Assembly (NCBI GenBank): GCA_008632985.1
Contig: QPGO01000088.1
Coordinates: forward strand, 248,001-312,000
DNA from: Psammoneis japonica
Lineage: Eukaryota
DNA: 64,000 bases
Reading direction: 5' to 3'
In this document: positions 3,361 to 64,000 of the stretch, in pieces
Position numbering within the stretch: the first letter of the stretch is position 1
Layout of the letters: every line of letters begins with the position of its first letter
The notes under the pieces: generated by a model
What the model was told of the DNA's origin: nothing
Seen by the model: the letters and a program-made list of their open reading frames with translations, nothing else
The model's database searches: none
Translations under genes and position numbers: made by a program

Positions 3361-3561
<201 letters not shown>

Positions 3562-25093: not shown

Positions 25094-26460
25094 TTAAAGG
25101 ATTTGAGCGCCTACTTTGGCGACTCCCTCTGCCTTCATAAACTCTTCCCGTAAGCTGTAGATGTATTGCATTACTTCAATCTCGACAGGAGTCATCTTGA
25201 GAGTATTAAAGAAATCGACGTGAAGGACGACTCGTTCTTGTGATGTGTGTGTGTTCATAGTTTCGTGCTCGTATGTCGTATCATACAAGAGACACTCACC
25301 CTCCTCCCAATGCCTAGTTTCAGGTCCCACGCGAATGTACGCGGCGTCGCCTTTTCAGACAAAGAGCAGAAGAATTGTTTAGGAACAAGAAGAAAAAGTT
25401 GAAACCATATTCGTAGAAGTAGAGTTGTCCAAGATTACCTTCCGGGACCTGTATTCCCATTTGGCACGTCAACCACATGTTATTTCCATCTGTATGAAGA
25501 GGAATGCCAGTTTCTGGTTGCTGTCGATTGAACCCTGCTATTCTTCCAGCGAGGGGCACTTCAGAAAAGAGAGAAGGCGTGAGCGTTCTGTCAAGCGAGG
25601 ACCAACAAGGAATGAAAGCATCAAAGAAACGTACCAGTTTCCAAAATCTCAGTTGTTTTGGGACAAAGGTGATATGGAAAATCTGGTATGCGGTGTCCGT
25701 TATAGAAGAGAACGAGTGTTTTCCATCCACTTTCGTAGTTCATGCTTGTGACGGACTGGAAACGATCCTTTCCGCCCTGCTTGATGTCTTCGAGTAAAGC
25801 GTGGTATTCCTCACGAATGGTTTCAAAATTTTCAGTCAGAAGGCGACAGAGATTGAGTTCGTTCGGGTCATGAAAAGGTTTTGTTTCACCAAGGCCAGGC
25901 ATGTAAGCATGGATTTCTTGTTCAGGGCGGTATGGATTTGACACAAGTTCGTCTTCGAAAGGTACATTTGGATCCAACGTATGCCGAACAAAGCCGGCGA
26001 TGCGTGTCAGCTGATCATCTCGCACATTGGAGAAACGAGAACTAATGAGACTAGGCATAAGTTGCCAAAATGGATCAGCATCAGGAGAATTGGCTAGAGG
26101 GGAGTTCTCCACGGCCTGGCCAATGCAAGTTCGTGATGCCGCGGCCGCCAACGAATTCAACATGTCATCCTGTTCAGACTTTACGTACGGTTTGTTCGTT
26201 GAAGCCTGTTTCTTCTTAGCGACCTTCTTGTTCTTCTTCCGACCTGATTTCGACGAATTTGAACCGAAACCCCCACCAGCTCCACTACCGAATCCCTTGG
26301 CGTACAAAGGTGCGAGCGGAAACGAACACGGATTGGAAGATGATGTCCTTGTACTTAATTTGCTAGTGGGCAAGAACGCATGGATGTGACATAGGATTTC
26401 GCAGACAAAAGTCACGCGGCAAAGTAGAACGCAGAAGAATCCTCTACTGAAACGTAACAT
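25094..26460 (-). CDS. Aspartyl/asparaginyl beta-hydroxylase-domain 2OG-Fe(II) oxygenase, probably plastid-targeted
   Basis: Introns 25559-25634 and 25351-25438 give ...CPKTTEILETVPLAGRIAGFNRQQPETGIPLHTDGNN...IRVGPETRHWEEGECLLYDTTYEHET...ERVVLHVDF; presequence ...HIHA|FLP. Confidence 0.85.
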
Positions 26461-26694
26461 GGTTACGAGAGACTATTTCATCCACCTCTTATACTCGAGA
26501 TGTCAACAGCTCAGAGAGTAGAGAGTGACATCGTGCAACCAGAACGGGCCGCGGACGTCCATCGTCTTTTGCTGCGGGCGGACGGCACGGCGGAAGGACT
26601 GGGAATGGGATTGCTAGATACGCACGGTAGGACAGGCGCGAGCTAAGAAAAAACTTACTGGCAGATTCGAAAAATGGAAAGCTCTAAAACTGAT

Positions 26695-27660
26695 CAAGCA
26701 ACTGCTGAAGCTGTGACTTGGACAAGATCTTCATCCATGTCCTGCAATTCTTTGGCTTCCAGTTCTGTGTCCACCAAGAAAACAATCTTGCACCATCATT
26801 TCTCCAGCACCTTGTTGTTGTTGTTGAGCTTCTCCTCCCCGCCCCCCCACTGCAGGGGGTGCTGCACATCTCCACACACGCAACCCAGTGCAAGTGAAAT
26901 GACATGCAATCAATTTGACAAAAGAGATGGCTCATCAAGCTGTGACAGCATGGCTGCAAATGACTCCAGCTCTTGTTTGTTCACGTGTCAGCGCACAGCA
27001 TCCGGCTGGGCTGCCCCTGCCACTCTGCCAGCCGCCAGCAGGCCTGTTCCAGCTCCAGGTGATCCACTTTTCATCACGAGAGAGGCCGATTTTCTGCACA
27101 GTTTGGTGCAGTTGACTCCTTCGGCTTTGATCATTTCAAAAATTGAAAGGTGAGCGCGCACCTGAAAACACATGCAAAGTGCACACTTGCCCTTCGATTT
27201 GGCAAAAAACGGATTTGGAAAAAGTCAATTGCGCCAAATGCACAAATTGCCAAATGATGGGAATCGAACCCGCGCGGAGCACCTGGAGCTGGAACAGGCC
27301 AGCGGCAAAGCCATGTTTTGCATGATCTAATTGCACGTGAAAACAAACATTCACACAAGCAAAGGAACTCAATGCAAGAGCCACTTTTGTCGACAGAAGG
27401 GTGCAGAGATGAGAGCAGGGGGCAGAAGGGGGAGGACAAGAGAAACACACACAGGGGCCGGAGACGAAGCCGAAGTCGCTGAAGCTGAGCATCAAATGAG
27501 CTTCTCAGGAGGAGTGACAGTTTGAGCAGAGTCTGTGGTGAGTCATCTGAAGGTCAATCACGCGGCTGAGTTGACAGAGAGAGCAGGAGAGGAGACAGTG
27601 ATGATGTGGAGGCGAGATGCGATCATGGCGCAACGGCGCAACGAGGAATGCTTTTGCGCG
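26695..27660. repeat. ~1-kb TpA-depleted island (presumed transposon remnant) between two genes
   Basis: Roughly one TA in ~960 bp while CG is partly retained; flanks have normal TA content. Confidence 0.7.
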
Positions 27661-27938
27661 CACGTAAGGAGTCAGTCGCGCGGTCGGAGGGAGAAAACAG
27701 AAATCAAAAATGCGTAGGATTCTACGTGATTCTTTGGTACAGCATTACAAAAAATTGAACTTGTGCTCCGGCCTGTCGTCGCTCGTCGGTTGCCGACCGC
27801 ACAACCTAAACCGACCTGCTGAGCACAACACACGAAACACATCTCGCGGCGCACGCAACACCATCTGTGTAGTAGTTGGCTACATCTCTGTCTTTATAAC
27901 ATCCGAGTGTCTCTTCTCGTCGTATCAGCAGCAACAAC

Positions 27939-29716: not shown

Positions 29717-30104
29717 GCCAGGCCACGACGAGTTATTTGTAGATGCTGAAACGAGTTAACACAGCATGTCAATCCCAGTAACAATGCGTTTGTTTTCATT
29801 TTCGTTTCTCATTGACCAATCCAGTTGTGTGCGTTGTCGCTGTGCGATTTCACGCCTCAAAACCCTGACCAGGCTCTTATCATAAACTCGGGTATGGCTC
29901 TCATTTTATTTTATTATATATTTATGTACATTGGAAATAGATCATGAGCCACAAACTCGTACATTGTTATGCTGGATGTTCTGATCAGGGGGCTCTCAGC
30001 TACTACGGTGATTATCATTTTCATTCGGCGGCGGCAATGGCATGACTGTAGTCGCTCCATAAGACAAACGAGCTTCGTGAAAGACGTTGTATAACGAGAA
30101 AAAC

Positions 30105-33100
30105 ATGAGTACAAACCCCTTTGATGATGACAACGTCGCTCCCCGATCACGACGAAGCGGTGCGAGTCGATACCGCAGCAGCAACAGTAGCCGTCGCATC
30201 CAAGCGCAAGATACCGGCGAACCTGCTATATGGGCGGCACGCAACGTTGAGTGGCCCATCCCAGTGGCTCTGTCCCTGTCTTCTTTTTCTAAGTTAGTGC
30301 GTGCAAGTCGTCAAGCGGGTGCATCATTGGGTATTGCGTCAGATGCCCTTGCCGTAGACGAGCAAGACGAAGCTGGCGGCGCAGAAACGCAGAACTACAA
30401 CTACGGCTTTGCCGGACTTATGAGTCGTGTTCTTAACACTTCCGGCACCGGATCAGGTACGGGAGGAGACGAGGACGACATTCTGCAGCATGATTTGGAT
30501 GGGGGCTTAGCATCACCTTCGTCCTCTCGGTCAGCTCGACCGCTCCGGCCACCGAGGAATCGATGCGTTGCGGCATCCAACGGGTGGATTATTGCTACTT
30601 TTGAATGCGCACCAACTTCTTCTGGTGGTCCACTCTTACGACTTGTTAGCCGATGGAATGTCCGTAGAGGAAGCTCATCCTCTTCTGGAGACCATTTGAT
30701 TGTCCTACCACCGCCCGTCTTGTCGTCGACGAGACCTACTGCTTCGGCTTCTTCCACGACGTCCCCTCCAACTCCAGCTGAGCTACTGTCGACGCGCATT
30801 GCTCACGTTTTCGTCGATCCTACCGGTTGCCACACCTTGTTGTCTGCCAAGAATGGAGAAGCCTATTATTTACACTCATCATCGCGCACGGTACAAAAAT
30901 TAACCGGCTTTGGTCTTGCTCCGGATGGAAGTCAGAGTGGCAACGAAACTGGAATTTCCGCTACCGCCTGGGCTGCAACGAGAAAAAATGATGAAACAGG
31001 CATGACAGCTGCCCTTCAGACAGGTTTGTCCGCAGGGAGCTATGTGACGGCGGTGGCATGGGACAAGGAAAGGGGTACAGAGGGATCTACGAAAAAGATA
31101 TTGCTGGGCACCAACATTGGAGAATTGTATGAATACTACCTTAACAGTCCCAACCAAAGCAGTGAAGCCGTATCGAAGGCGCCTAGCAACGATGAAGAGG
31201 ACGGCATGGATACAACCAGCGGTGAAGCTATGCCAGTCTTACTACACAAATTGCATTCAGCAGAATCGAGCGCTGCTGAAGCAGAGGTTGCTGCAGTGAC
31301 TGGGTTGTATTTTGAGCGTCTCTCTGCTCCCATGCGGAGCAGTAGTGGCGCAACTGTCCCATCTGCCGGCGGAAATGGCATTTGTGTTTTGGCGGCCACG
31401 AGTGGGCGTAATAAACGTACACGACTCTTCACTTTTTACTCCGCCGCAGGAAGCGGAGGGTTTCGTTCAGTCTTATCGTCGTCGTCATCCGATGCTAACC
31501 AACCGTCGTTGGTGGAATTGCCGGGATCGGTGGATTTTGCTGATTTGAGACTGTGTGGAGACAACTTTGCTCTGCGGACAGCCACGGGTATTTACTACGG
31601 TACTCTTGATCGAGGTCGATCCACCGGTGCCAGTCCATCGGCACTGACTGGGAGCTCCGTTACCGGCGGTGTTATTTGTGATGCGGGAATTCTTCCGTAT
31701 GAGAAAGGCGCTTCAAGCACCGCTTCAATTCCCGTGTCAATTGCTCTGACTCCGCACCATTTAATAACTCTATCAGAATCAAGCGAGGTTCGTTTCATTA
31801 ATCGCGTCGCTCAGAAGGTGATACAGAAGGAACGTGTTGATTGGGTGGCAATGTCCCCGTCTAACTCTGGCGCTGGACCGACCTCAAGTGTGGATGAGAA
31901 TCTCATGGGATTTGGTGAACTCATGATGGATATTCGAAGGCCAGACCAGGTTTGGCTTCGAAAGGCAAGGGCTCTTGTTCACATCTCGTCAAGCTGTGAA
32001 GATCGTGATGTATGGAAATTCACCGTTTCGAAATGCCTTGATTTTCCTCAATCATCTCGAGGAGGCGCTTCTAAGTCGAGGGCCTTTACCGGCAGACCCG
32101 AGATAGTCACTCGGCAACCGTCGTTGACCGGAGTCGCAACGATTCCCGTCTTGACTGAAGAAGAGAAGGTTCAAGAGGCTCTTTTTGAACACGCCAAGAG
32201 TCTGTGTTCTAATACGGTGCAAAAAGCCGTCGTGACGGCGGTGCGGGCCGAGTATCACTTGTCACAAGGGCGTGCCGAGCTTGCTGCCAAATACTTGGCT
32301 CAGTGTCCGCCCACTTTGGCACCTTTTGCAAGCACATCCATCCGTCTGGCACTTCCGATGCTTGGTATCGACGATCCAAAGGGTTATGGATACTCGTCGA
32401 AAGCAAAGAAGAATCTTCACGAAAGTAATCTCGCTCTCATAACGTATCTGGGAGATAAAATGAGGGTTGCCAAAATGAACGACGATAGTGTAGCATGTAC
32501 AATGGTTGGAGCATGGCTGACTGAGTTGTACCTGAACGAGCGTGAGAGCGCTCTTGGAACCGGCTTGGGACAATTTGATGTTCCGGACTCAGACTCGCCA
32601 GCGAGACGGGCCAAGGAGGCATCAAACCATGCAATGCTGGACTCCTTTTTATCGAGCTATGTGGAAAACTTAGATGCCAAGACAATAATGCGGATTTTGA
32701 GTTCGCACGATGTTAGTGCTCCAGAATGTGCTAGCTTCGCAACGGCGAGTGGGGATATTTCTACCGCAGTCAATGCTGCTCTCTGTATTGGATCAGACGA
32801 CACGGTGAGTCGAGAGTAAGCTCGAAACCAAAGATTTGGGACCGGAAATCTAACCTTCTCGTCGCTCCGCTTATCAATGCTGTGTCTTCGCCTTAGACTG
32901 GTGCGCGGGATGCCCTACTTGTTCTGGACGAAGCTCCGTTTGAGATGGCCGAGCCTTTTTACTATCGCCATGCTGTAAAATTGCTCTGCCGGGCACCTAT
33001 TCAAGCCTCTAAAAGTTTCCTTGAACGCTATCTGGAAGGTCTTAGCCCGACAAAACTGCTACCGTCCATCATGACTTACGAGAGGAAACGAGCTGAGTAT

Positions 33101-46607: not shown

Positions 46608-47952
46608 ACCCAACGTATTGCAACTATTGATAGAGCTGTCGAATGCAAGTTTGGTGGTGGACTAGAAGTGCAACTGCTTGTGCTCGCTGCTCGTTTCTTC
46701 CTAAATATTCCACGAAAGCCTTCGCTCGTCTTCACAGACCTCCCGCAGTTCCCCAGTTGGGAGTGGCCGCTTTCCCGCCATTACAAGTACAGGTTATGTG
46801 TACGGCCGACACCATTTCGTTTCCGATTTATCTGCCACGCAGTGGCGCTCTCCAGTGGAAAGAGGGCCACCACTGATGGCAGAGAGCACAGAGCACAGAC
46901 CTCCCAAGCTGGGAGTGGGCAGAGAGAAGGCATCCATGGAGTTGAAGCTGCCAGCTGCTGCCTGATCTGGCGAGAGAGTGCTGACTGGCGTGAGTTGCAA
47001 TGCTGTTGAAAATTGAAGAGCAAAAAGTGATGGCGGCTTCCTCCACTCAGTCGAGAGGCATCTCATCGCTCTGCTCATGTTGCCGGCTGGAGCCAATTCA
47101 CAGTGGCACCACATCTTTTCAAACTTCAAGCAGACATTTTTGATGAAAAGAAGGCAGTGACAAAGAACAAAAACAGAAAATCAAAAAAATGTTTTTTGCA
47201 TGCCCTCCCACTCCAGCTCCCTGGAGTTGTGTGTGAGGTGCGTGGTGCATCGTGAGTTCATGACAATGTCCTCAGATCAGATGACACAGCATTTTTTTTG
47301 TTTCGTGGTTGTTTGATGTTTCTTTGGACAGTTTTCAAAGTCTGCAAATGCCCATCTTCAAACAGCGAGACACTTCTTGTGCTGCAATGTCTGTTTGTCT
47401 TTTTGTTTGCTTGCTTTTTCCAGCACCCAGCATGCAAAATCCAGAACAATTCACAAGCAGTGTGCCACGCAGTTGGGCAGGGACAAATCTCTCCACAAGC
47501 AGTTGGTGATGTGGACAAATGCAAGCCAAGATGAGGGTGACAATGCAGGCAGCAGCACAGCCACTGGCAGCAATTGTGAGTTCCTGTCTCACCCCTTCTC
47601 AGCTGTGTGCCAAGGAGCCAAATGGACTGCAAGAAGGCTGCCCACCCACAGAGGTGGCTGATTCACTCGCAATCTCATGTGACACTTGTTCACACAAGAC
47701 ACACCGATGGTGCCATCCCACAAGCTCTGTCAGATGGCAAGCATGCAACAGCTTTTTGACTGGGCTTGACACGCAAGCAACACTTGCGCAGACATGGTGT
47801 TGTTCTCAATTTGGTCAACGGGTGTCTTGGTGCTCTGCTGTGTCCACCCATGGAATCTCCCCTTGAGGCACCAACAGCTCCAAGCAACTTGTTGGTTTGC
47901 AGACTGCACCTTGCATGCCATCAACACTCTGCCAACTCTGTTGGGTGGCAGC

Positions 47953-48319
47953 TGCAGCATGCGACTGTTACATGCATGTTTGTGATTGTGTGTTATTTGT
48001 GTGTCAATCGTACCACAGTCGTGGATGCGTGCAAAGGACAGAACGATCACACAGAGTTGATCGGATGTCGAGAATTGCAAACACGATCGATTGACGATGT
48101 TGACATCTCACGTGTCAATGGCAATCGCATCCGGACAATCTGTTGTCACGAATGTGTTCTCCGAAAGGCCTTTTGTCTGTAGAAGCAGTGCAGAAGCTTT
48201 AGGCCATTGAGAACTCGTTCGGAGAAACCAAAAATCACAGAGCAAAATTCAATCTCATAATTTCCACTTTTCGCACACTGCTCTACTTTCGTTTACACTC
48301 GTTCTTCGAGCATGGTGCA
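47953..48319 (+). repeat. 5' LTR (367 bp)
   Basis: TG...CA termini; ungapped match to 52320-52686. Confidence 0.95.
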
Positions 48320-51300
48320 TTGTGTGTACACACCACAGAAGGTAAAAAGCACGGAAAATGAAAATTTTAACTAATGTGCCTTTGCAAATTCTTCTGTGAA
48401 CAGGAACGAATCGCATCAGTTCTGCTGGAATCGATTTCCGAGCGGAAGAAGCTCAAGCCGAGCAGTGCCTCAAGATGGAACGCTGTTTTTCGTCTGCCAG
48501 ACAAGAGGATTCGCTCTAATGCGGTCTATTCCAAGCACCCAAGGATCAAGGGCTCTCAAGTGCACCGCATTATCAAAAAATCTACACCAAGTCATGGTTG
48601 CAGAGAATGCAAGTTCCGAGTCGATCAGGTCCGAGAAATGCGTCTGGCATGCAAGGAGAGACTGTTGGAGAGTTTTTGGAGACCGAATCAACGAGCCTCG
48701 AGTCCAAGAGCAAGATGGAACCGTTGGAAAGTACCTCAAGAGTCTCGTGTCTCATGTCTTTCCAAGAATTGCACTTCAGAATCAGAACTGTTATTTTCAA
48801 GACGATCTGAAGAAACCAGAGCTGCTTGACAGCAAGAAAGCCTCTGTTAGACCCAAGAGGTCAATGATGAGAGTCTGTGCAACCCTCAGATGGATTCTAA
48901 GTCGAATCTAGCGGGAAACCGAGCGCTGATTCATCAGCTGTCACTCGCACCGCAAGGATGGCAGCATCAGTCTACTGTCCAAAACAATCAACTGTTGCAA
49001 CTCATCCTTGATGAGCTGATTAAGTTTTGAGTCATCTGAAGGTCGTTCATGACGTCCGTGACGAAAAAACACATCAACTCAGGCTCTGACAGCGCAGTTG
49101 GTTCCAAAATAAAAAAGGTTCCAAATTTGGTTCCAAAAATGGTCTCCCACATGGCACCAGAACAATCCAAAGTGAATGCAAGGTCTCATCTTTGAAAAAA
49201 GAATACCTGCATCACGGATTGAAGCTGTTCTAAAAATGAACTAGCAAAAGAGTGCAAGGGTGACTCTGAAAGAGACCCAAAAATGCGCCGTTCAAATGGC
49301 AATCGCACGCGGTCGCGTCGCGATGACGAAAATGCCGCTCGCAAAAAAAGAGATGAACGTCATGATTGATCAGGCGGTTCAAAAAACACTCAAAGCGAGT
49401 TCCTTGAACAAAGAAAAAGAGCATGAGGGCAAAGAATCAGATTCTGACACCCTCAGTGAAGAAAAACACCAATTTGATCGGATGATCCAGACTGAATCCG
49501 AAGAACAATTTTGGTCCATTCACGAATCATGTGCTTCACTGGGTGTTAGGAAGCCCAGAAAAAAGGCAGAAATAATTCATGCCAGTCCAGGAGTCATCAT
49601 TTACATGAACACTTCCTTGGGAAAGGAGAGAAAAAAAAAGCATCTGCGTGTTCCTGTCGATGACGGAACATCGTCAACCACAATTTTGCGCAAATTCGTG
49701 CGAAAGTTGAGAACACAAGAATCCGCCACCAAAAACTTGGGAAACCAAGGGTGAGCTCTTTACGACTGACAGTAAACACCGAATTCAGTTCTCACTGTGC
49801 GAAATTTAAGGCACACTGATGTGCAAACAGCACATGTTGAAAACACCAAATTTTCTTCAGGTTCAATTGATGTGATCATGGGACGCGACTTAATGTCCAG
49901 TCCTGCAAGTCACATTGGACTGCGCAAATGAAGAAATCTAATGGGAAGAAGCAATTGCCTTATGAAGAATGTTCGTGCACTCTTCGATGCCGATGTTTTC
50001 AAGCTGAAAACCGATCACATTGAAAAATGTGACGCCGTGAACAGAGTTGATGACGGAACCAATGGTCCTCGACTCACATTGTCACGCCATCGATCTTAAT
50101 CAAGTGACAACTACGGCGATGCATCTAACCCAAATGAACACAACCAACTCAATCTTCTTCTCAAGAGGTTGAAATCGTTTTGAAAAGTTCCTCAGACGAA
50201 TGCATGGGAAGCATCAGCGGATCTCATCGTGGAAAATCTGACGCGATTCCACGACGCGTGAGAACCTTCTCCTGTCACAGTCTTTGGAGGCGTCCAATCA
50301 AAAGGAGTTTGACCTGTTATGAAAGATTGAAGTCTCAAGAATGAAACCACTCTGAATGAGTTGCTCTGAGACTCATTGTCTAAAGAAAACAGGTCGAGTT
50401 CGACCGTGTCCGACACTCAGAAGCTTGGCATGAGGTTCATGCAGGTGGTGTGTCCTTTACCCAACATTCAGGAAATGCTGTTGAAGCAAGAACGTTTCAC
50501 ATGTGTGATCCATTTGATTCAAACATGGAATGCCACCATGTCAAATAAAAAAAGCACACATCGTGCTCACACGAAAATCATGCCGTGGGGAGAAAATGAG
50601 CACTGTGGACTTCCAATGAGAATCTGTAGAGCCCCAGACATTTTTGCACAACACTTGAGTGAACTCACAACAGATTTGAAGTTGTCAGAATGACTGCATG
50701 TGATCGTTTGTGCCTGACAAAAGTAACTTCAAAACATCACCTGTGCAAGCAACAGCTTAGTGCGGCATTCAAACGACTGGAACAGTCGCTTAGAAGGTTA
50801 ACAACAAAAGTCCTTCACCATTTAACTTGAAACAAACTATCAAGACTTCCATGCGTGACGACATGCAATCGATCACAAAGAAAATGGAGGCGATTCAAGC
50901 AATCGCAACACGAGAAAAACGTAAAGAACACTGCGACATCTCGTTGTCATACGTCGCCATTGTCGAGACATGCAGTCTCAACGATCTCCTGCACAATGCT
51001 GGCCAAATTCACCTCAACAAAGGTCAAATGGCAAAAGCACAAGTACGGAACGAAAAGTCTCCGAAAATGTGGAGCGCATCAAATCAAAAACTGTGTTGTC
51101 ATCACACACGCATTTCAACATTGTACGTTACAACGGAAAAAAGAACTTCTGTCCACAGTGAAAACACTCATAAAATTCCGAAATGTGCTGTTTGGCCAAC
51201 AGATTTATGCATGCACGGATCACAAGACACAACGGACAAAGTCATACGTTGACAACTTCAGTCCCGAATTAGAGTGCAACGAGGGCAAGGCAAACATCGT

Positions 51301-52319
51301 CGCGATGGACGCGATCAGCCGACTTGCCACAGAAAATTGAATCCTACGACAATGTCCTGCCGTTAAAACGGGATAAAGACATTCCCTCCAAATTGTCGGA
51401 CGCGACATGTCATACGAACACTTTTCGTGGAGGCGAGCGAGATTGAAAAATGCTCATGTCACAAGGATAAAATCGCCTTTTTAAAGGATGATTTAGGAAA
51501 AAACAGTGACAGATTGGCGTGCATTATACGCGTCCACTTCACACTGGCAAAAGACAATCTCACAACACCCGCACGGTTGCATTGTACAATGTACGAGGCA
51601 AGACATTAAAATGTGCATCATGTCGACACACGAGATGTGCCAAAGATCTAGAAAAAGAAAAGAAAAATGGACATTTGTCCACTTGGTGCACGAAACCAGT
51701 GCCTTCGGAATGACAAAATAACACCAGCATGTCAGAAAGAAACGTCCAAATGACGATTAAAATCCAACTGATGGACAGTTGAAGTACAAAAAAAAAAAAA
51801 AAATCCACAATGGAGTTCATAACCATCACAGGATTGATCATCAAGACGAAATGGTCACAACATCCTTGACCATCGTTCATTGTTGCTTGTGAAACGTGGC
51901 AGTGCAGCAGAGCAATGTGGCATGTAAAGTAAGCCCGCCAAACCACATGAAATCCACAAGCAAGCAAGTGAACGCCACAATTAAGAGCGCACATTAAGTG
52001 CTGGGCATGATGCCATGTACAATCGACATCAGGAAAAACACTTGCTCCAGGACAATTGGTCCTTGTGTTCATGTCAACAAGAACGTCAATGAGAATGCTC
52101 GACGTGACACTACACAACATGTGCACATTAAGTGAGAAACAAACAATGTCACTCTCAAAAGACATTCGGAAATTGGAACGGCCCTGTGTTGCCCACACAA
52201 AACAACAACAGTCATTGCCAATGGCACAATGCAGTGAAAGTGGAGACATTGTTGACACTGTTGATGTCCGTCGAATGATCCACTTACAAATGACTCTAAT
52301 GTGCAATTAGGGAGGCGAA

Positions 52320-52686
52320 TGCAGTGTGCGACTGTCATGCACATGTTTGTGATCACATGTCATTTACATGTCAATCGCACCACAGTCGTGGATGCGCACA
52401 AAGGACAGAACGATCACACAGAGTTGATCGGATGTCAAGAATTGCAAATACGATCGATTGACGATGTTGACATCTTGCGTGTCAATGGCAATCGTATCCG
52501 GACAATCTGTTGTCACAAATGTGTTCTCCGAAAGGCCTTTTGTCTGTAGAAGCAGTGCAGAAGCTTTGGGCCATTGAGAACTCGTTCGGAGAAACCAAAA
52601 ATCACAGAGCAAAATTCAATCTCATAATTTCCACTTTTCGCACACTGTTCTACTTTCGTTTACACTCGTTCTTCGAGCACAGTGCA
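52320..52686 (+). repeat. 3' LTR (367 bp)
   Basis: TG...CA termini; follows the polypurine tract; ungapped match to 47953-48319. Confidence 0.95.
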
Positions 52687-53371
52687 CAGCGCCAGACATT
52701 GAGAAGAGCAGATGCATTTTGTTAATTTTGCAGAGAGACTCTGGAGGTGCTCTTTGCATTGAAGCATTGGCTTCCAGTTTGCTGCAAGCTTTGCATTTCA
52801 TGCTTTTCTGACTCCCAGCCTTGCCTTTTTCTGGTGCTTGTTTTTCAGTTTTTGTGTCTTTGCAGATCCAAAGCTCACACCCAACACCCATCAAAAAGCA
52901 CTCAAGACAAAACTGCTTGAGATTGACAGGATGGAAGCTGGTGAGCAAAACCATTTTCTCAATGCCCTTTGTGTGTGGGATCTTTGTCAGCACACTTCAA
53001 GATCACATCAAGTGCTTTGTGTGCACCAACTGCCATGTGCTGGCAAACCAAGTGGACAGCTTTCATCCCCACCCTGGGCCAGATGTGAAGTGGAAGCTTC
53101 TCTTCTTTGGTGTCTGCACCTTGGCAATGTGGGTTTTCACAAACTTCAAACCCCATCAGCAAACTTGACAAGTGCAGATGAACTCCAGCTGATGCTGTTG
53201 TTGACTTGTCTTGTTGGACTTGGTGCAGCTGGTGATTTTCTTGTGGAGCACTGCTTCCACACTGTTGGTGGCACAACACCACATCCTCATGGTGACTTGG
53301 CATTCCCAGTGAATGAGGTTGCAGCCAAAGCAGCTTGCTGGGCAGCCCAAACTCTTGTTTTGGTTTCTGCA

Positions 53372-53787
53372 TTTGATCTTTGGAAGAAAACCTTGGGCAC
53401 ATGTCAAGTTTCCCAATGCAGTGGTGCTGCCTCCAGAAATCCGTGAGCTTCATCAAACCCATTTGGATCTTTGCGCATGTTTTGGAGGCCATGCCAAAGA
53501 CCTGGCCAAGTTTGTTGCATGGCAAAAGGACAAAATCTGATCAATGCAAGCACTCCAGTGCTGCATTTCTTGAAGGCATGGTTTGATCTTTGAAAGAAAA
53601 TCTGAAAGTGCATGTCAAGTTTCTCAACACAGCAATGCTGCCTCCAGAAACCTGTGAGCTTTGTTGGACTCATTTGGATCTTTGTGCATGTTTTGAAGGT
53701 CATGTCAAAAACTTGGCCAAGTTTGTTGCTGGGTGAGGACAAAATCTGATTGACTCAAGCACTCCAGTGCTGCATTTCTTGAAGGCA
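53372..53787. repeat. Tandem duplication, 2 x ~210 bp
   Basis: TTTGATCTTTG...CAAGCACTCCAGTGCTGCATTTCTTGAAGGCA repeated at 53372 and 53582. Confidence 0.9.
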
Positions 53788-55199
53788 CAAGTGTGCACAT
53801 TTTGCACCCTGATGCTGTGCATTGGTGCCAAGCCTTTTTCTGCCTCTTCTCAACTGCTCAGTCTCTCTTGCCACTTGGTGTCATCCACACAAACAAAGCA
53901 AAGTGAGAGTCCTTTAAGCACACCAACTTGGAAAAGAGGATCCATCTGTTGCAGATGCAAAAGAGGAGGTGAAGTTTCCCCATTGCTTTGCATTGGAGAT
54001 GGCTTGTGTTGCTGAGCAGGCTGGACTGATCACTGCAGAGTGAGGTGTGTGTGTGTTGTGTCATGATCGTGCATTGTGCGTTGCTCTTTTAATTTTTGCA
54101 CTTCATCCACTCACATGCACAGAGACAGAATTGTCATTTCCTCACCATGGCTGTGTGGGGCAAGAAGTGGTGAGTGTGATGGAACTTTGAGATGCTGGTT
54201 TTCAGGCTGTGCAACAGTCTGACATTTTAAATTTTAAAAACATGAGGCAGTGCACTGAATGTGATTTGGGGTTGGAAAGTCACCAAGGGGGATGCTTTAA
54301 AAGGCACAGCAATGCAAGGCTGCCTGCAGGGGCTGAGCAGACATGGCACTCACCAGTCTCACAACAATGTTCTTGAAACAAGGAAGGGGGGGCTGAGTGG
54401 AAAAATTGGCAGTGTTTCTCTTTTGACCATGGCACTCACTGCAGCAGCCATGAGTGCTCTGCTTGCTGCCAGCTTTGTCATTGTAGATCAAGACATGTGG
54501 TGCACTCCTCTTGTGATTGTGTGTCATGCTGCTTTTCTTTTTTCAATTTACCCCACTCACCCCAGCTGCTCTTGCCTTCCTGCCATGCACAGAGACATTG
54601 TGTTTTTGTCTCCTCACCACAGTTGTGGGCAAGAATTGGGCACATGGGTGGCAGAAGTTAAGGTGCTGAGTTTCCAGGTTGCATGGCAATCTGGGCTTTT
54701 CAAGACAAGGTGGTGCACTCACTGCAATTTGGGGTTGAAGGTGCCAAGGAGGGCCTGCTCCTTTGAAAAGCACAGCAGTTGTGCAAGGAAGGGCTCTGAC
54801 TGGGGCTGAGCAGAAGCGGTGCTTGGCCACCAATGATGTTGGCAAAAGAGAAAGCTTCTTGTTAAAGTTGCTTGTGCCAAAGCAGGAGCAAAATGTCAAA
54901 CTTAAACTTGTTGCAGCTTTTGCTGTCATGGGCAAAACAAGGCCATTTTGGACATCAAGTTGCTGTGATGGAGAGAGGCGACATTGACAACAGAGAACTC
55001 ACAGACCATGCTCTGACCCAGGCTTGTGTTGTCATCATGCAAGATGTGCTGCTTGAGAAGCCAAGCTTGTTGCAAAAACATTGATCAAAGAGATCAGAAT
55101 TTTTGTTCGGATGATCAGCTTTACAAGCCTTCCATGAAAAATTGCATGTCACACCTCCAAGTTGAGAAAGCAAGAAAGAGTTCCTGAGACATGTTCTTT

Positions 55200-58100
55200 T
55201 GAAATTGTTTGTTGTGCCACAGCCCTGCTCCCAGCCTGAACATGCTTCTTTGCCATCAAAGGTGGTCATCAGTCTTGATTCAAGATTGGCATGTTGCACC
55301 ATTTCTGTCTCCTTTGCTGGTGCACTGCAAAGTGGCATGCCAAAGTGGAGGCAGCATCTGCCTGGACTTTGATGAAGAGACACCTGTTTCTGTGAGGGCA
55401 GCTGCTGGCAAGGAAGAAGCATGGCATGTTGAAAATTCTGGAGATGAAAGCAACTGCCAACAACAAAGCCTGTCACATCTCCAATGACAGTCACTCATGC
55501 AGATGGCTGCCATCCCAAATGAGCATGCTGCCCCTCCAATGTGCTGCACCTGCTTGACAAGGTGACAAAACCAACTAGTTTGAGGCCACACAAACACCAC
55601 ATCTGAGGGCATTTTGAGTTCATCACATTTGCAATGTTTGCTGCAGCTTTCTGGTTGGCTGCCAATCTGTGTGGACACAGATGGGCCAAGGCTGCTCCAG
55701 CATTGGAACAAGTGCTTTTGCAAGTGTTGCACAACAGATTGCAAGCCAGTGTTTGAGTGAATGCCTCTTTGTTGACAAGAGCCTGGGTGACAAGAGAAAA
55801 TGCCCAAATGACAGGGAGTGCAGTTCTCAGAAGTGCTGCTGCATGTCCCACTGTGGCATTGTTTCCAGCCGGGAGAAGAGCAGCTGCCACAGAGACAATC
55901 ATCATTCTTCCATGTTGGTGGCATGCATCATCAAAAACACCACCCAAAGACCACTTGTCCCCAGAGGAAAAGTCAAGGCAAGCCTGGTCAGCATCCTTTG
56001 CACTTTGTAGAGCATTTTTGTGGCAGAAGAATCTTCTGAAGGATGTTTTGTGGACAGATTCTCTGGCATGAAGAAACAGTCCTCAAACCAAATGATGCAT
56101 CCTTGGAAATGACATCTGACCACACACAAGGATGATGAGCCAGGCAGTGGTGTGGACCCCAGGCAGCTGTCATCCTGAGTAGAGGAAAAGTCAGAGAGCA
56201 GAGTTTCTTTTTGTGTTGGCAGCACATTTCACTCCAACATTTGTTGGCAATTGACTGAAGCCATGTTTCTGCTTTGGCTTCTGTTGTTGTCTGAGCAGCT
56301 CACTCAACATGTGGCATCTGCCACCAACCCTGCTGCTGAGAGAGACAAATTCCTTGCAATGGGGGCAATGCACTCATTTCAGATGAGGACCACACCCAAG
56401 AGGCAGTGGCGCATGCAGTGGGCTCTGCATTGCAGGGCACTTCTTGAGCTTTCAACTCTGGTGTGCTTGTCTCAAATCAACACAATGAGGTACGTCCAAT
56501 GTCAGATGCTGAGCAAGAACATTTGGAAGACAAGCAAGCACCTGTCACTCCCCAGATGATCCCACCCATGAGATGGCATCAGCCATGGTTGTGCCCTTCA
56601 GCATGAGATGATCTTTCTGATGGCAACACTTCTGCTCCACACATCAGCACAACAATGTTGTGGCCAAATCTTTTTGTCTGAACACAAGAACCCCCAATTG
56701 CTGGTGCTGGCGTTGCTCCCATTGTCATTGTGCCAAAGCAGCCCCCTCAGCTGTGAAGTGGTTTGTTCAACAATGACCCCCTTCAAGAGAAAGAGTCATC
56801 TGCAGTGCCTTGGACAAAATGGGATCCTTCCAACCACAAAACTTTTGACCCGAATCAATGCACTGGCACAGCTGAATTTTTGGTTTGAAACAAAAAAATG
56901 AACAAGAGCACGTGCTGGCACAAGACAAGTTGCTCATTGTGGATGCCAGCAGTGCTGTCAGTGCTCCTGCTGTTGTTCCAAGATCATGGTCCTTTGCCTC
57001 AGAAACACTGGGTTGGCTCAACTCTCAACAACTGCGACACCTGCCATTTTCAAGAAACAGCTTTGTGTGGTCAGGGCCAGGGTTTGGGGTTGGAGTTGTG
57101 GGCAGGGAAAGGAGCTTTTGACAAAAGACCAGCTTGTGATGGTGTTTTGAAAGCAGGTGTGGCTGAGCAAGGTTCTGTCATCCAAAAAGCCAATCTTTGA
57201 GATGGCATCAGAGTTGAGAGTCAGCCTGTGTGATGAGCAGGCACCCTTTTCATGGTGCGATCTGTCCTGCTGTTGCAACACACTTGAAAACAGGAGTGTG
57301 ATCATGCTGTTCATTTAAGAGAATGCCACAGCACAGCAGGTGCCAGGGCCAGCAGCAACAAGGAACCAACTGTTGGCACACTTCATTGCTGGAGATGCAT
57401 GATGGTGATTTTTGGAACACTGAGAAACTGAACCACCGCAGCAGCTGTCTTGCTCCAATGGCTGTGTGACAGCACTTCAACACATGAGAAAAATCCAGCT
57501 GACTGGCTAGACTGCAAACAATGTCACAAAAATCAAATCCAGCTTTTGCACTTGCTTGCCATTGAGTGTTGGTCACCCTGTCTCTTGGCACATTAATTTG
57601 TGTGGGCCCAAAATGCTCTGCAGACAATTTTCTGACTTTCCAAAGAACCCTCCTTGTTCTGTTGTCAGTCAAAGGAGATGCTGATTTTTTTCCCACAAGA
57701 GCTGGGTGTCACACCAAGGGGTCACATTGTGCCACATCAATGTCTCTCTGGCAGTCATGCTCAGACCAAGAGGTGTTTTCTTCAGCAATGACTCAGCTGC
57801 TGCAGAGAGTTTCTCTTTCTGTTCCAGAGAGCAGAGAGTGCTCTCACCACAGAGAGGTCCTCTCTCTTGGCAGAGACATGCTGTGCCAGAGGCTGGCCAG
57901 AGACAAGAACAACTCAAGCATGAGATGAAGTCATGGGTTCTCTTCTGCTGATTGCTTTTGGATTTTTTCAGCTTTGCATGAAAAGAATTGTTTTTGGGCA
58001 AACGGACATTTTGACAAAGAAATTGTGGTGTGAGGACATCCTCACGTGCATTTCAAAAATCACAACGCATGAAAAACCACACAACTCATGATGCTTTCAC

Positions 58101-59300
58101 AATCCACAGCATGCAAACAAACAACAAAATGCAATCACTCCACATGCCATTCCAGTGGAATCCATGGGCTGAGCTCTCAAATGAAAAGGAGGACTTCCAA
58201 GGAAGCCAGTGCTCTGCTGATCAAAGTGGAGCTTGAACATGACATGAAGCTCTCAAGAGTTGAAAGAAGTCATCTGAAACATTTCCAATGGCAGCATTTC
58301 ATGCAGGTGACTGCCACTCCAAACAAGCATGAGGATGCCTCCAATGTGCATTTGCTTGGCAAGTCAATGGAGTTGACTGGCTTTGGACCACACACATGAT
58401 CTGGAGGGATTTCAAGACCCTGTCTGTGTTGTCCCAGATGAATTGATGCTGCTCCAGAGTCAGTGCAAGTGCTCTCAATGAAGTCACTTCACAATTGACA
58501 TGAAACAGATTGCCAGCCAATCTTTGAAAGAACACCTCTTTGTTGTCAATGAGTGCTTGGTTTGCAAGAGAAAAAGCCAAATGGCAGGGAGTGCATTGTG
58601 AGAAGCACAATCAAACATCCTGCTGTGGCATTGTTTTCAGTGTTGAAGAGAGTGGTGGCCATGGAAATGACCGTCTTTCTTCAATGTCAGGTCACACACA
58701 TCAAAACCACAGCCCAAGGACCACTTGCACCCCAAGGAAAAGTCAAAGAAACATGCACTCCAAACCCAACCATCCCCTGCACTTCATGGAGCACGGGCAT
58801 TTTGCAAACACATTTTTCATCATGAAGGAAAAATCCTCTCAAGCCAAATCTGCATTCTTCAAAATGATGTCTGACCACACATGAAGATGACCAAGTGAGT
58901 GATGGCATGAGCTGCAGTTTCAGTCCAGAGAGGAGAAGTCAGAGAGCAAGTTGCATCTGTGACATCATCAATTCCAAGATTTTGCAGGAACAATGTGCTG
59001 AGTGCTGTTGCCACTTTACAATCATGGCTTGTTCTGGAGCATCCCATTCAACACACAGAGTCTGCTGACATGATTTCATTCAATGACAATGACCCCACTC
59101 CACAACATCATGAGACAGAGAGGAGCAGGAAGAAGATGAGCACATCCAAGCATGGGATGGTGCTTTTGATGGCAACAATCCCATCATCCACAAGATCAAG
59201 ATGTTGTCCATGTTGGTGCCTTTAGAGCAAGAGATCTCTCTTGACAGAGACAATGAGAGTGCCTTTCAGACCAGCACATTGGTGTGGATGGGTTGTTGGT
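55200..59300 (+). mobile_element. Heavily decayed probable LINE remnants, including a diverged internal duplicate (~55800-56200 vs ~58580-58960)
   Basis: Shared blocks such as GACCACTTG.CCCC..AGGAAAAGTCAA; weak peptides HFMQVTA and ISLDRDNESAFQTS resembling the LINE at 12950-14060. Confidence 0.35.
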
Positions 59301-59639
59301 CAAGACAGAGCAGGCCAAAAAAGAACACGCTCAAGCACCTGCATCCCCCTCCTTGTAGACTGCAGTGCTTCTGTCATTCTGAGGTGGTCCACTCATCTCA
59401 GAGGGGCTCTGGGGAGTGTGCATGTCTCATCTCTGTTGAAGGAAGAACTGTTTGGAGGTCTGCCAGAATCTTGAGCTGGCAAAATGGCGTCATGGGGTGG
59501 TTTGAATGCACGCAGGAAAGAAAAAACATGTGCAAGGAGAAGAGCAGGATTGAGAGATGATGCAGAGTGAAAAAAGCAGTTTCCTCCATGGAAAGGCATC
59601 TGGGCAGATGACAAGCTTCAAAATTGGCAACCTCACTTC

Positions 59640-60360
59640 CAAAGTTTGTTGGACCTTAAAAAGGAATTGGTTGCCATGGAGGCTTCACCAAGCTTCCTGC
59701 TTTTCACATTCAATGCCAAGACCCACTGCTCAAATGTCCCAGCCAACAAAGCCCTTCACAAGTTCACCTCCTGCTTCCAACCACACAGAAATGAACATCA
59801 AGATGTGCCAACAGAGGCTCCCATCAAAGCTCTCTGGATTGTTGTGAAAGACAACATCTTCACATTTGGCGACACAACCTGGCATTGACACAATGCAACC
59901 ACCATGGGCACACCACCTGCTCCCATGTGTGCCACCCTTTGCTGTGCACTTCACAAGGCCACAGTTCTGGAGGAGTCAAGCACTGATCTCCTCCACTGCA
60001 AGCAACTCATGGATGACATTGCCAGAATTTGGCACCTTGCCAACACCACCACCGATGCTGCCCATTGGGGTGCATTTGCCTCCAGACTCAATGACTGCAA
60101 TGTCACTTAGATTGTGAGCTCCGCATCCTGCACAGTGAATTTCATTGACCTCACTGTGGCCCTCCACAGCTCTCATCTCCACATCAATCTTTGTGAAAAA
60201 GAAATGAATTTGCATGTCTTCTGCATGCTGCCACACTCAGCTCACCCACCTGGAGTCCTTGGCGGCCTGATCATGGGAATGCTCTTCCAATTTAAAAATC
60301 TTTGCTCTGACCCCAACAACACAAAAGCAAAAATGAAGCTGTTGCACTGGTGCAAGCCTG
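59640..60360 (+). mobile_element. Penelope-like element reverse transcriptase fragment, decayed
   Basis: LLFTFNAK...IVVKDNIFTFGDTTW...MGTPPAPMCATLCCA...CKQLMDDIARIW...VNFIDLTV...LCEKEMNL...PHSAHPPGVLGGLI matches the PLE RT motif order (GxAMG..AP, RYxDD, FLDL, YxK, SxHP). Confidence 0.85.
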
Positions 60361-61007
60361 CAGACACAAACCCAGCAAACTGCAACCAACATTCCAGAAA
60401 GCACACAATCTGATCTTTGGAAACACAACAAGAGAAGACACACCTGAGCAGAACCCCACTTTTGTCCATGTCCCGAGCCACCCAGATGACCTGCCACATT
60501 GATTGAACTGCAAAAACTTTGGAAACGGAAACAGGCTGTGGCTAACCTTCCCCACTTTCAACCACTTGCCAACCTTTGAAGTCATGCTCTTCAACACATT
60601 GGCCTTGACTGCTTGATTGCATGCACTGCAGCTGCTCACAAAACCTTCTCTCCTGCCACAACCTTTGCATCTCTAATCTCCCCTTGGCTTCATCCTTTTA
60701 GATTGCGTGCAAGGAGGCCACTGAGAGAGAGGGAGAGGAGAGACACACACAGAGAGATGGCAACTTGAGTCCACTCATCTGTCCCTCACCACTTGGATTT
60801 GGATTGTGTTGATGCAACAGCTCACCCACACATCAACAACAACAGCCGGGTGCTGACAAAGCCACCACAAAAGTCTCACTCCTGACTTTGACCAATGTCA
60901 TTGTGCCCGCTGTCTGTCTTGCAGCTTGAACAACCACCCAATCAGTGGCTCCTGAATTGGCCACTTTGTTTGTCAGTCACATTTGATGGATGAATCAGCT
61001 TTGCCCA

Positions 61008-61100
61008 TTTTGTTTGTTTGTTTGTTTGTTTGTTTGTTTGCCAATTCTGTTCATTTGTTTGTTCATTCAAGAGAGAGAGAGAGAGAGGAAGGAGGGGGGG
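61008..61100 (+). repeat. Short (TTTG)n and (GA)n microsatellites
   Basis: Visible directly. Confidence 0.85.
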
Positions 61101-64000
61101 GGTTAGAGAGATGGGGAGCAAAGCATTCAGAAAAAAGAACATTTTGATTTGCAGAGAGGAAGAAGATGAATTTAGAGAAACAGCAAGGCAAAAAGAAGAT
61201 TGAGCTTGGCAAGGGCTGCAGGTGGCGGCAATCTCATTTGATTTTGTTTGCTTTGGCAGCTCAAAATGAATGAATTGAGTTTGGAGATGGTTTTCTCACC
61301 ACACTCTGGCTCCATGAATGTGGGTGGTCAAAATCCTGTTGCTTTTGAAAACAGCAATTGACAAGTTGCAGGTGAGCAGCAACATTCTGCTGAGCATGGA
61401 ATCTTTGTGCTGCCTGCTGCACCAGCTCACACACATCATGCACAACATGCACCTTTACATTTGACAATGCAGGCTCAGCTTTGAGGCTTTGAAAACTCAA
61501 TGACAGATTTTCAACATTCCATCGTTGACCAAAAAGCACTGTTGGCTTTGGACAGTGTGGCATCTGGAGTGTGGACAGATCCAATCATGTTTTTCTGCAT
61601 TGAAGTGCTTGATTGACAATTTTGACACCTTTGCAGAAAGCTTTCTGTGGGGTTTCAAAAAAAAAAACAGCGTGGCCATGTTGGCAAAAGAGAGAGTTTT
61701 GAAGCTGCATGTTCAAGTGCACATGCTGAAAGCTCACACCTTTTGCAATCACAACACAGGTTTTGTCATTTCAGTGCATGGTTGTGCATGGCATGACAAT
61801 GCTCGGAAGCCACAAATTCTTTTAAACAACCAATGTGTCCCTTGTTTTTGAAATGAAGTGCTTGATGATTCAAATGGACTCGTGGGTTGCACATTTTCTG
61901 CTTGGGTTGAAAATGATTTGACCATGTTGGGGGATGCCAGGTGGACAGAGAATTTCAAAGCTGTGTGGTCAAAGGCACTTTGAAAGCTCGCACCTTCTGT
62001 TGCACTTGCAATGCATGGGCTTTGTTTGTTCAGTGTGCAGCCCACCAAGTGCCTGGTGTCTTGAACTCATTTTTCCCCTTCAGATCACATCTTGCTGAGA
62101 TTCACATTGTGTGGCAGCTGCCAAGCCAGGATCTCAACTCCTTGCTCTGCAGCCCAGTCCACTCTGCAGGCAGCCCTTCTCTTTGCCAAACATCGATTGT
62201 CTGTGGCTCTCCAACAGCTTTGCACAAATGCGAGTCAGTGATCTCATTCTGTCATCCTTCCCTGCACAGCACCCTGAATGGACAGTCACTGGGATGCTCC
62301 TCCTTCTCCTCTTTCTTTGCATTGTTGCTCCACTGCTGCCAGCTTGAGGGGTGACAGGTTCCAGTCCCAGGTGGGACTCCGTGTGACATTGGGCCCGCAG
62401 AATTCTGCGTGCGAGCTCCGCAGTGAATTTGTTGCGCAATGAAAATGCAAATGATTGCCAACAGAAAAAGATGCAATTTTACGAACGCATCTCCTCCTCC
62501 ACACTTGCAGCACATCATTGACAGTTTGCCTGGGCATGTTCTTCAGACATTAAAGAACACACCCAGAGCATTTTCATTCTCATGAGTGTTGAAAATGGAA
62601 AGCCTTTGGCTTCGCAAAATGGGGAGCATGAAACAATTTCATAGAACATCACATGCAGAAATCTGCGTGTGCGACATGCCATGCGATCCAAAAAACTCTT
62701 GATGTCACAATGCAGCAGTGCGAGGTCCCACCTGGAGCTGGAACGTGTCGGGTGCCACAGAGCAAATCGAGCCCACAGACTGCCCTCCTTCTTGGATGAG
62801 AGGCTGTGGACTGTGGATTGTCTTGTGACAAAGAGCACCCCCCCCCCCCCTTCATGAGCATCACCACAGCACTCATCAAACAAAGCAGATGATGCCAACA
62901 GCTCACTCACACATTGCAATCAATCTGCTGGCAAGTGCGGAACTGCTTGCTTGTTTTTAGCCCTGTGATGTGCATCGTCGCATCGCAAGTGCACGTTTCC
63001 ACGCGCAGGTTCACTTCGGGCCACTGGGGCCCTGCGCACTGCGCCACTGATGCACTCGCATGCTCACGGTTTGGGTTGTGAATGCTGTGTTCTTCGCGGC
63101 TTGTTGCAGGTCACCGCTGCCCACTGTGGAGGCAGACGGAAAGAACACAACCCTGGGCACAACTGTGCAGGGTCTAGCACTTCTTCTACAGGGTCACCAG
63201 GAAAGCACAGACACCGACTTCCGCTACATCAACCTGCAGCACCCTCCAAGACGCGCAGCTGCGAAGACAACCAAAAAAGAAAACGATCGCGACAATGGCC
63301 TCCCTTGCGTCGCTGACATCTGTGTCTATTTTTGCCGTATTTTCCCGTTTCTTTTCGCAGCATTCGGAGCTTTTATGCAAGCAATGTGATGGGCCAGTGG
63401 TGCTGGCGTTGAGTTCAATCCGTCGAGGCGGATTTGTCGCTGAAGGTGCAGTGCAGAAATTGTGAGAATGCAGCATCAACATGACGGATTTTTGTGATGT
63501 GCTGTTGTGTCTTTGGTGTTGTTTCTCACTTCTTGTCATCATTTTGACGCATGTGCTGTGAGGTGTCCACGGGGCTTGGGTTTTCATGGTGCTGACTTTC
63601 TCTTCGGAGCTTGTCGTTGAATGATCAAAATTGAGCTGCCACTGGAATTTATGGCAAAGAGTTGGCGGCGGTGACATCTCAACATCCCTTGGGCCGATTT
63701 TCGCGATTCTTGTTTCATCATCAATGGAAATTGTACAAGGAATCCAAGAGGCTTGGTTTTGTTGTGCAAAACTCCATTCTGTGCAGATGGATTTATTGGA
63801 TGCCGTGCGCACAGAAATGATGCTTCAATTGGAAGGGGTGCTCCAGCGATGTTGTGGATTGAACAAGGAAGAATGAAGCCCCAGACATGCACTGCATGTA
63901 ACAAGAATGTCAAACATGAATGTCAAACATGGCACGGGGTTTTTTGCGTCAGTTGATCGTGTCGGGTTGCCTTGATTTGACAGAACATTCCACGGCACCA

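Follow-up and report, generated by a model that had tools for sequence, protein, structure and literature searches.

To our knowledge, targeted hypermutation against transposons is textbook matter only for fungal RIP, which changes C to T, and for the APOBEC/ADAR editing of viral nucleic acids. A DNA-level mutator that is specific for TpA and works from A:T to G:C has so far been reported in one 2026 preprint and from one rhizarian alga. In this alga, Bigelowiella natans, mutation-accumulation lines served to measure a hypermutation from A:T to G:C that strikes only TpA in giant-virus and virophage DNA integrated into the genome, and an ADAT2 homologue is proposed as the agent (Mettrop et al. 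2026, bioRxiv 10.64898/2026.01.13.699255). The words "diatom" and "stramenopile" are absent from the text of this preprint, and our full-text literature searches returned no description of TpA hypermutation for diatoms. The near-saturated signature found in the diatom islands analysed here extends the known range to a major phytoplankton group.

The window, i.e., the whole stretch of 64,000 nucleotides from Psammoneis japonica that was analysed (assembly GCA_008632985.1, contig QPGO01000088.1), is nuclear diatom DNA of two kinds, gene-bearing stretches on the one hand and TA-poor blocks on the other. A phosphoribulokinase ORF of 464 codons (778-2172) is 84-88% identical to its counterparts in mediophyte diatoms such as Helicotheca and Ditylum, and a Vps18-domain protein is encoded by a single ORF of 912 codons (30081-32819). 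The gene-bearing stretches at 21-26.5 kb and 27.5-46.5 kb have an observed to expected ratio (O/E) of 0.51-0.56 for TpA and of 1.0-1.1 for CpG, whereas two blocks, at ~2590-20560 and ~46840-64000, are nearly TA-free. The part of the latter that holds a reverse transcriptase (RT) relic, 52687-62000, is found at single-copy depth in the public run X1 and contains 32 TA where 657 are expected and 40 CG where 512 are expected, alongside 1047 TG and 1052 CA; its TpA and CpG O/E are thus 0.05 and 0.08, against 0.56 and 1.0 in the neighbouring genes. The two parts of the other block (2590-20560) differ in their CG loss, as 2501-14000 retains 38 TA of 784 expected (O/E 0.05) and 59 CG of 653 expected (O/E 0.09), while 14001-20500 has a TA O/E of 0.06 and a CG O/E of 0.48. 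When the old blocks are compared with the gene stretches, only four of the 16 dinucleotides are strongly shifted: TA and CG are down, TG (1.88) and CA (1.81) are up. AA and AG remain steady (1.20 versus 1.16 and 1.08 versus 1.00, respectively), and GC content is alike within the blocks (0.47-0.53) and in the genes (0.48-0.49).

The erased domains are sharply confined. Their edges, at ~2590, 20560-20600 and 46830-46850, can be placed to within tens of bases, and at these borders TA loss and CG loss stop together. A smaller TA-poor island of ~980 bp (26686-27664) lies within the gene-rich stretch and contains a single TA, with CpG largely kept (O/E ~0.6). A tRNA-like string in this island was left unsupported by a tRNA scan, which found none, and a scan of the window against Rfam gave 0 families at gathering score. 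An expression look-up listed no RNA data set as carrying 54001-64000.

The RT relic is a dead Penelope-like (telomerase-like) RT core on the + strand at 59595-60344, which matches positions 243-497 of a 624-position profile built from 20 homologues (hmmsearch E 2.4e-70). A phmmer search with the frame 59571-60410, in which X stood at the two stops, against 1.84 billion representative proteins yielded 1529 matches at E<=0.001, of which 498 reached E<=1e-10 and 34 reached E<=1e-30; the top match stood at E 6.1e-51 and 41% identity. One in-frame stop, a TGA at 59886, occupies the place of a Gln invariant in 20/20 homologues and the other, a TAG at 60108, that of an invariant Trp. Weak, frame-shifted remnants of the C-terminal part (profile positions 497-597) follow on the + strand in the other two frames at 60338-60627 (hmmsearch --max, i-Evalue 0.2 and 1.2), and hmmsearch found no match to profile positions 1-242 upstream of the core. 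Given this unmatched upstream part, the stops and the frame shifts, the copy is dead and either 5'-truncated or decayed beyond detection. Local Pfam searches returned nothing for the X-masked RT frame, only a sub-threshold RT_RNaseH among the 117 stop-free ORFs of 46.8-64 kb and, for 150 of the 156 stop-free ORFs of 2.3-20.8 kb, only a Copia-type RT (RVT_2, E 2.9e-14) on the + strand at 18201-18800, within the stretch 14001-20500. The segment 59640-60360 alone holds 3 TA and 4 CG, compared with 47.1 and 40.6 predicted from base composition.

The original prediction had read a loss of tyrosine codons to cysteine in this RT, and the strings on which it relied, MGTPPAPMCATLCCA (59904-59948), CKQLMDD (59997-60017) and LCEKEMNL (60189-60212), are all present. 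Its guess at the lost residues agrees with the homologues, whose consensus reads ...PPAPPYATLYYAI..., ...YRR(Y/F)IDD... and ...LYEK.LNL... in the corresponding motifs. The profile alignment that it had called for, made with the 20 homologues, reveals that conserved Tyr was replaced throughout: 10 columns have Tyr in 60% or more of the homologues, and in these the window has Cys six times, His twice, Leu once, Phe once and Tyr never, while the consensus residue was kept at 79 of the other 130 columns of equal conservation (Fisher p = 1.6e-4). The motif at 59904-59948 (+ strand) carries three Cys codons (TGT, TGC, TGT); the first two stand where 18/20 and 12/20 homologues have Tyr, and the third where Tyr is the residue of the A2 majority consensus but falls below 60% in the 20-homologue alignment. 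Other replacements accompany those of Tyr and can be traced to the TA and CG routes as well. Ile became Met twice (window codon ATG), Arg became Gln at two of three conserved Arg columns (CAA), and Pro to Leu (CTG) and Ser to Leu (TTG) changes were also found. Five further replacements are of the G-to-A type (Asp to Asn twice, Glu to Lys, Gly to Arg and Val to Ile), each directly 3' of a C. The signature that had been named after Tyr to Cys is thus borne out at six of the 10 Tyr columns, yet the name is too narrow, as it leaves aside Tyr to His, Ile to Met and the CpG-type changes (Arg to Gln, Pro to Leu and Ser to Leu). Replacement of Tyr is the coding read-out of the block-wide loss of TpA and CpG. 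Ancestral sequences are inferred throughout this comparison and those below, the pair of long terminal repeats (LTRs) discussed later being the exception.

The RT family itself is large, with 1181 matches at E<=1e-10 among the candidates scored in a second homologue search. The 120 best matches listed all belong to the precomputed family PF28514 and most also to PF26215; beyond these two accessions, the cluster look-up and the second search gave the family no name other than "hypothetical protein". The core palm motifs occur in order, with the DD kept in CKQLMDD and the flanking motifs aligned. Ahead of the core, near the N-terminus and in a region absent from the window copy, the homologue consensus contains LLGLGLKF, which is of the GxKF type, and CDKNLGPA. 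Motifs conserved in Penelope-like elements (PLE) are, according to Craig et al. 2021 (PMC8557442), GxKF/Y towards the N-terminus and DKG, for which the Hydra clade has DKT. The place of DKG is taken in the homologues by an invariant DKN-LG (CDKNLGPA). An AlphaFold model of homologue P0128 (mean pLDDT 89.5) retrieved TERT chains at PDB ranks 1-5 in a Foldseek search (E 7e-10 to 1.4e-8), and the RTs of group II introns, LINE-1 and retrons ranked below TERT. The TM-scores are low, however (0.36-0.42), and viral RNA polymerases score too. Pfam searches of 26 homologues (20 at E<=0.01, six at E<=0.1) detected no GIY-YIG endonuclease, which makes the family compatible with endonuclease-minus PLE clades only, and yielded one weak RVT_1 match (E 0.004); no PDB sequence matched the RT-family profile at E<=1. 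No hammerhead ribozyme was recovered among Rfam families at gathering score in the window, a result that says little since the window copy is truncated and hypermutated. Like the endonuclease-less clades Athena and Coprina, the RT family combines a single ORF of ~600-740 residues with GxKF, a DKG-like motif, an RT core, a telomerase-like predicted fold and no detected GIY-YIG. Unlike PLE, it has DKN for DKG, and neither a hammerhead ribozyme nor a telomeric context was seen. On these motifs and this predicted fold, "Penelope-like", of the endonuclease-less kind, appears the best label for the family, as the original prediction had it, although DKN and the lacking ribozyme leave membership unproven.

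A young, high-copy Gypsy-like LTR retrotransposon (47953-52686, + strand) is nested in the second TA-poor block, next to the RT-bearing part. Its LTRs (47953-48319 and 52320-52686) are 367 bp long, 93.7% identical and bounded by TG..CA ends; a 4-bp duplication, CAGC, flanks the element and a purine-rich tract precedes the 3' LTR. Its depth in run X1 is 8,600-26,800, compared with ~56 for genes, which suggests several hundred other copies of the family; its TA O/E is 0.26 and its CG O/E 0.91. The pol region is decayed: the single Pfam match is RT_RNaseH (E 0.002), whose 18.6 bits fall short of the 24.8 required, with no RVT_1 at E<=1, no integrase and no PDB relative, and a word-indexed search among longer proteins found no homologue of the RT and RNase H pieces. 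The Gypsy strings quoted in the original prediction do occur, namely VCPLP (50448-50462), RFTC (50493-50504), ACTDHK (51209-51226) and ELEC (51266-51277). The decayed RT found no homologue or solved relative, so that an ancestral Tyr in these four strings is conjectural, and two degenerate DNA patterns retrieved no less mutated sister copy of the element among metagenome contigs.

Change from TA to TG or CA in this element is instead evident from its LTR pair. The two LTRs of an element are identical at insertion. Those of the Gypsy-like element now differ at 23 positions, all of them transitions. At seven sites the LTRs are opposed, CA against TG, and the single differences comprise five of TA versus TG/CA, two of the CpG type and one other, so that the TA route (seven double sites plus five singles) accounts for 19 of the 23 positions. 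Four TA are still common to both LTRs, and ~10 of the 17 inferable TA sites changed in each. CpG differs twice at ~21 sites, and one difference lies elsewhere. By this pair, the rate at TA exceeds that of CpG decay by about one order of magnitude and the background rate by two or more. Since the LTRs were identical at insertion and have diverged, the change is post-integration and takes place at the DNA level. Additionally, the 5' LTR leans towards TG and the 3' LTR towards CA over the same interval, and these opposite leanings contradict a rule set by the transcript strand.

The change reaches beyond RT-coding sequence. Whole blocks are depleted, including stretches without any detectable coding remnant. 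A degenerate tandem array of ~190-bp units (170-207 bp) occupies 8495-10040 in the erased block; eight aligned units are 51-73% identical. Compared pairwise, they show 192 adjacent double differences in which CA in one unit meets TG at the same place in another; this is the main class, and the one that follows has 44. A control pair, a segment of phosphoribulokinase and its paralogue, displays no CA/TG double differences. The original prediction had proposed that satellites be examined for the spectrum, and the array answers to this; it had also named DNA transposons, of which no recognisable one was found in the window.

Both strands are hit. TG and CA are equal in 52687-62000, and the RT shows Tyr to His as well as Tyr to Cys. 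The symmetry is imperfect in 2501-14000, where CA exceeds TG (1417 versus 1270, z = -2.8). Along the saturated blocks, TG and CA succeed one another at random by runs tests (z -1.1 to +2.0), and no strand patches appeared.

The locus also varies at present. Word depth in X1 is 57-70 over the relic and ~56 over the neighbouring genes. Between the window and contigs of X1, a public run that may be the assembly's own sample and hence gives no independent support, 52687-61805 differs by 29 substitutions, of which 15 are CG versus TG/CA, four TA versus TG/CA and 10 other. Only 40 CG and 32 TA are left as targets in 52687-62000. That variants at the locus fall on TA and CG with so few targets left indicates that both processes still act on the now single-copy relic. 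As to the proposal that the process acts on repeats, retroelements and the tandem array are affected, but targeting by repetition as such is unsupported, the RT relic being at single-copy depth.

The two losses can be ordered. The Gypsy-like element has TA and CG O/E of 0.26 and 0.91, the Copia-bearing stretch 0.06 and 0.48, and the old blocks have lost both. TpA loss thus runs ahead of CpG loss, and the two processes are separable. TA loss also depends on flanking bases. Among the 92 TA surviving in the erased blocks, 53 are YTAR, compared with 17% of TA in genes, and four are ATAN or NTAT, compared with 46% in genes, the baseline in both cases being host genes rather than unmutated elements. 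The half-mutated Gypsy-like element follows a similar trend. Read on the attacked strand, susceptibility is highest for TAT, followed by TAC and TAG and then by TAA. The rule is statistical only, since one TA kept in both LTRs has the supposedly favoured context ATAA.

Several explanations of this signature have to be weighed against one another. Editing of RNA or cDNA before integration, by ADAR-like A-to-I change of transcripts over many retrotransposition cycles, would fit the observation that the three recognisable retroelements all lie on the + strand with a TG O/E somewhat above their CA O/E, as well as the excess of Tyr to Cys over Tyr to His in the RT (6 to 2, binomial p 0.29). Yet LTR divergence arose after insertion and with opposite TG/CA outcomes at seven sites, stretches without coding remnant and the tandem array are equally erased, TG equals CA in 52687-62000, and TA is still among the sites that vary at the fixed locus; we consider such editing very improbable. 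The same observations (LTR divergence, TG equal to CA in the RT block, erased non-coding stretches and locus variants) agree with the original prediction, which had argued for a host process acting on chromosomal DNA rather than for RT error or pre-integration editing. A signature limited to RNA-intermediate elements and asymmetric between strands, which it had held out as evidence to the contrary, is not what we found, as the tandem array and non-coding stretches are hit, and on both strands. Modified bases cause systematic transition-like miscalls on some platforms, and the signature might accordingly be a sequencing or assembly artefact in which modified bases of heterochromatin were misread. 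Separately built X1 contigs nonetheless reproduce 52687-61805 with 29 substitutions at gene-like depth, a weak argument as X1 may be the assembly's sample. A stronger one is that a systematic miscall predicts the same letter in both LTRs, yet CA stands in one and TG in the other, and the RT carries stops and frame shifts too; an artefact is accordingly hard to credit. GC-biased gene conversion was rejected on account of the dinucleotide specificity of the change and the steady GC content, and a native low-TA composition because conserved Tyr were replaced and the LTRs diverged. We regard it as likely that a host-driven, post-integration and TpA-directed mutation of DNA acts on the transposon island.

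What carries out this mutation is less certain. One proposal couples the two losses: mismatches from deaminated 5-methylcytosine in methylated repeats would recruit an error-prone, polymerase-eta-like enzyme for patch repair, and this enzyme would miscopy T within WA motifs, much as happens in phase two of antibody hypermutation. The common sharp domain edges of TA and CG loss speak for this coupling, and the WA hotspot of polymerase eta fits the A:T-to-G:C direction at TA. However, AA and AG are steady in the erased blocks, AA to AG does not occur among the 23 LTR differences, and the young Gypsy-like element has lost most of its TA with CpG O/E still at 0.91; as this element is TA-poor with its CpG kept, TA loss needs no prior deamination of CpG, and patch repair is improbable as its source. 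Alternatively, the process could start from the thymine side, with a TET/JBP-like oxidase turning the thymine of TpA in silenced DNA into 5-hydroxymethyl- or 5-formyluracil that mispairs with G, resulting in T-to-C change. Oxidised thymines do mispair with G, and some protists carry hydroxymethyluracil preferentially at TpA. Furthermore, TA is its own complement, so that A-to-G change and T-to-C change on the other strand are indistinguishable in every count. Still, adenine deamination is what the only described case of the signature proposes, and a TadA-like enzyme with TAY as its target accounts no less well for the flank preference; a thymine oxidase is, in our view, unlikely. The preference for 5'-TAY points to a TadA/ADAT2-derived DNA adenine deaminase, and A34, the natural tRNA target of TadA/ADAT2, follows U33. 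A deaminase of the TadA/ADAT2 kind is the enzyme class that we infer for the agent, at a confidence a little short of even.

The history of the island may be summed up as follows. A 5'-truncated, dead Penelope-like RT copy lies in a diatom transposon island, in which the host probably turned nearly every 5'-TA-3' into TG or CA (A:T to G:C), on either strand, once the DNA was chromosomal. The deaminase would make inosine from adenine, and inosine would pair with C at replication. Most CG steps also became TG or CA, more slowly, presumably through ordinary 5-methylcytosine deamination in methylated transposons. In codons, TAY (Tyr) gave TGY (Cys) or CAY (His), ATA (Ile) gave Met and CGN (Arg) gave Gln. 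Silenced, cytosine-methylated chromatin may be what guides the deaminase, and not repetition or homology of sequence as such, since the action continues on relics that are now single-copy. Diatom transposable elements receive their CpG methylation through DNMT5a, and a RID-related DNMT4 occurs in many centric species (PMC9998398). CpG methylation of diatom transposons would offer a plausible address label and would explain the CpG half of the signature.

A wider reading, on which we are somewhat doubtful, is that a TpA-specific DNA mutator could be a genome defence common to distant SAR lineages (a diatom and a chlorarachniophyte). It would be aimed by silent or methylated chromatin, would outrun CpG decay ~ten-fold and background at least hundred-fold, would prefer 5'-TAY and would rely on a TadA/ADAT2-derived deaminase (less likely on a thymine oxidase), thereby serving eukaryotic genomes as a natural "adenine base editor". 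At the locus itself, the process acts on three kinds of retrotransposon and on tandem DNA. The order of rates, TA above CpG and both far above other sites, narrows the search for the enzyme, as does the flank preference. The locus also carries a warning for annotation: transposon proteins in such genomes, left without Tyr codons, escape profile searches, Pfam being blank for the RT.

Among known systems, the CpG decay of methylated transposons resembles the diatom case in the low CpG O/E of the old blocks (0.08-0.09) and in the 15 of 29 locus variants that are CG versus TG/CA. It explains the CG half only, the TA loss being separable and faster. As in fungal RIP (Neurospora and others), the host introduces transitions in one dinucleotide context, neighbouring genes are spared and stop-ridden transposon relics are left behind. 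Unlike RIP, which converts CpA to TpA and enriches TA, the diatom process leaves TA at an O/E of 0.05 and CA at 1.81, with a gene-like GC content. The likeness to Bigelowiella, as the preprint describes it, extends to change of TpA to TpG or CpA on either strand, to confinement to foreign or silent DNA and to a very large local rate excess. It likewise extends to TpA-depleted, CpA- and TpG-enriched clusters, which are enriched there for RT and transposase domains, and to the hitting of a single-copy target. The two differ in that Bigelowiella is a rhizarian whose mutation rate was obtained by real-time measurement and whose viral region is mildly depleted (Rho 0.45), whereas the diatom displays, as inferred from present-day sequence, near-complete erasure (O/E 0.05) in retrotransposon islands together with CpG loss.

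Directly outside one of the erased blocks, the stretches of transposon-island DNA in which nearly all TA steps and most CG steps have been converted to TG or CA, lies a tandem repeat of 194-bp units (20954-21919) with an overall normal TA content. Its adjacent copies are ~85-90% identical. One copy pair shows 34 single differences, of which 11 set TA against TG or CA; transitions number 29 and transversions 7. The TA-directed process, which we infer to be a host mutation of TpA to TG or CA following integration, may already have its onset in this repeat. Double CA/TG sites were absent from the differences between positions 1-334, at the window start, and 1790-2123, in the 3' portion of the ORF for phosphoribulokinase. 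These two segments share 71% identity, which suggests a tandem phosphoribulokinase paralogue located upstream.

Between two genes, a small TA-poor island of ~980 bp (26686-27664) contains a single TA and has a CpG O/E of ~0.6. It bears a 28-nt inverted repeat (arms 27038-27065 and 27276-27303) as well as, on its minus strand, a string similar to the T-arm end of a tRNA; ARAGORN and Rfam returned no match on the island. Possibly this island represents a short insertion of foreign or mobile DNA seen at an early stage.

The erased blocks also contain the microsatellites (AAAG)x52 (3354-3561) and (TTTG)x8 (61009-61040), the latter a few hundred bases 3' of the Penelope-like reverse transcriptase relic. 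A very high-copy repeat (62010-63343) reaches a summed word depth of 16,800-59,100 in the public sequencing run X1, versus ~56 for genes; its TA O/E is ~0.1 and its CpG was lost only in part. The interior of the nested Gypsy-like LTR element (47953-52686) is only ~4 kb long and holds no detectable integrase. Contigs of the run bridge this element while leaving out 48081-52463, suggesting that solo-LTR or deleted forms exist elsewhere in the genome.

Finally, a stop-free frame of 430 codons (8375-9664) was found within TA-free DNA, where it overlies a degenerate ~190-bp tandem array and yields a repetitive translation. Such long non-coding open frames occur there because TAA and TAG are almost missing, and they constitute a pitfall for gene callers.
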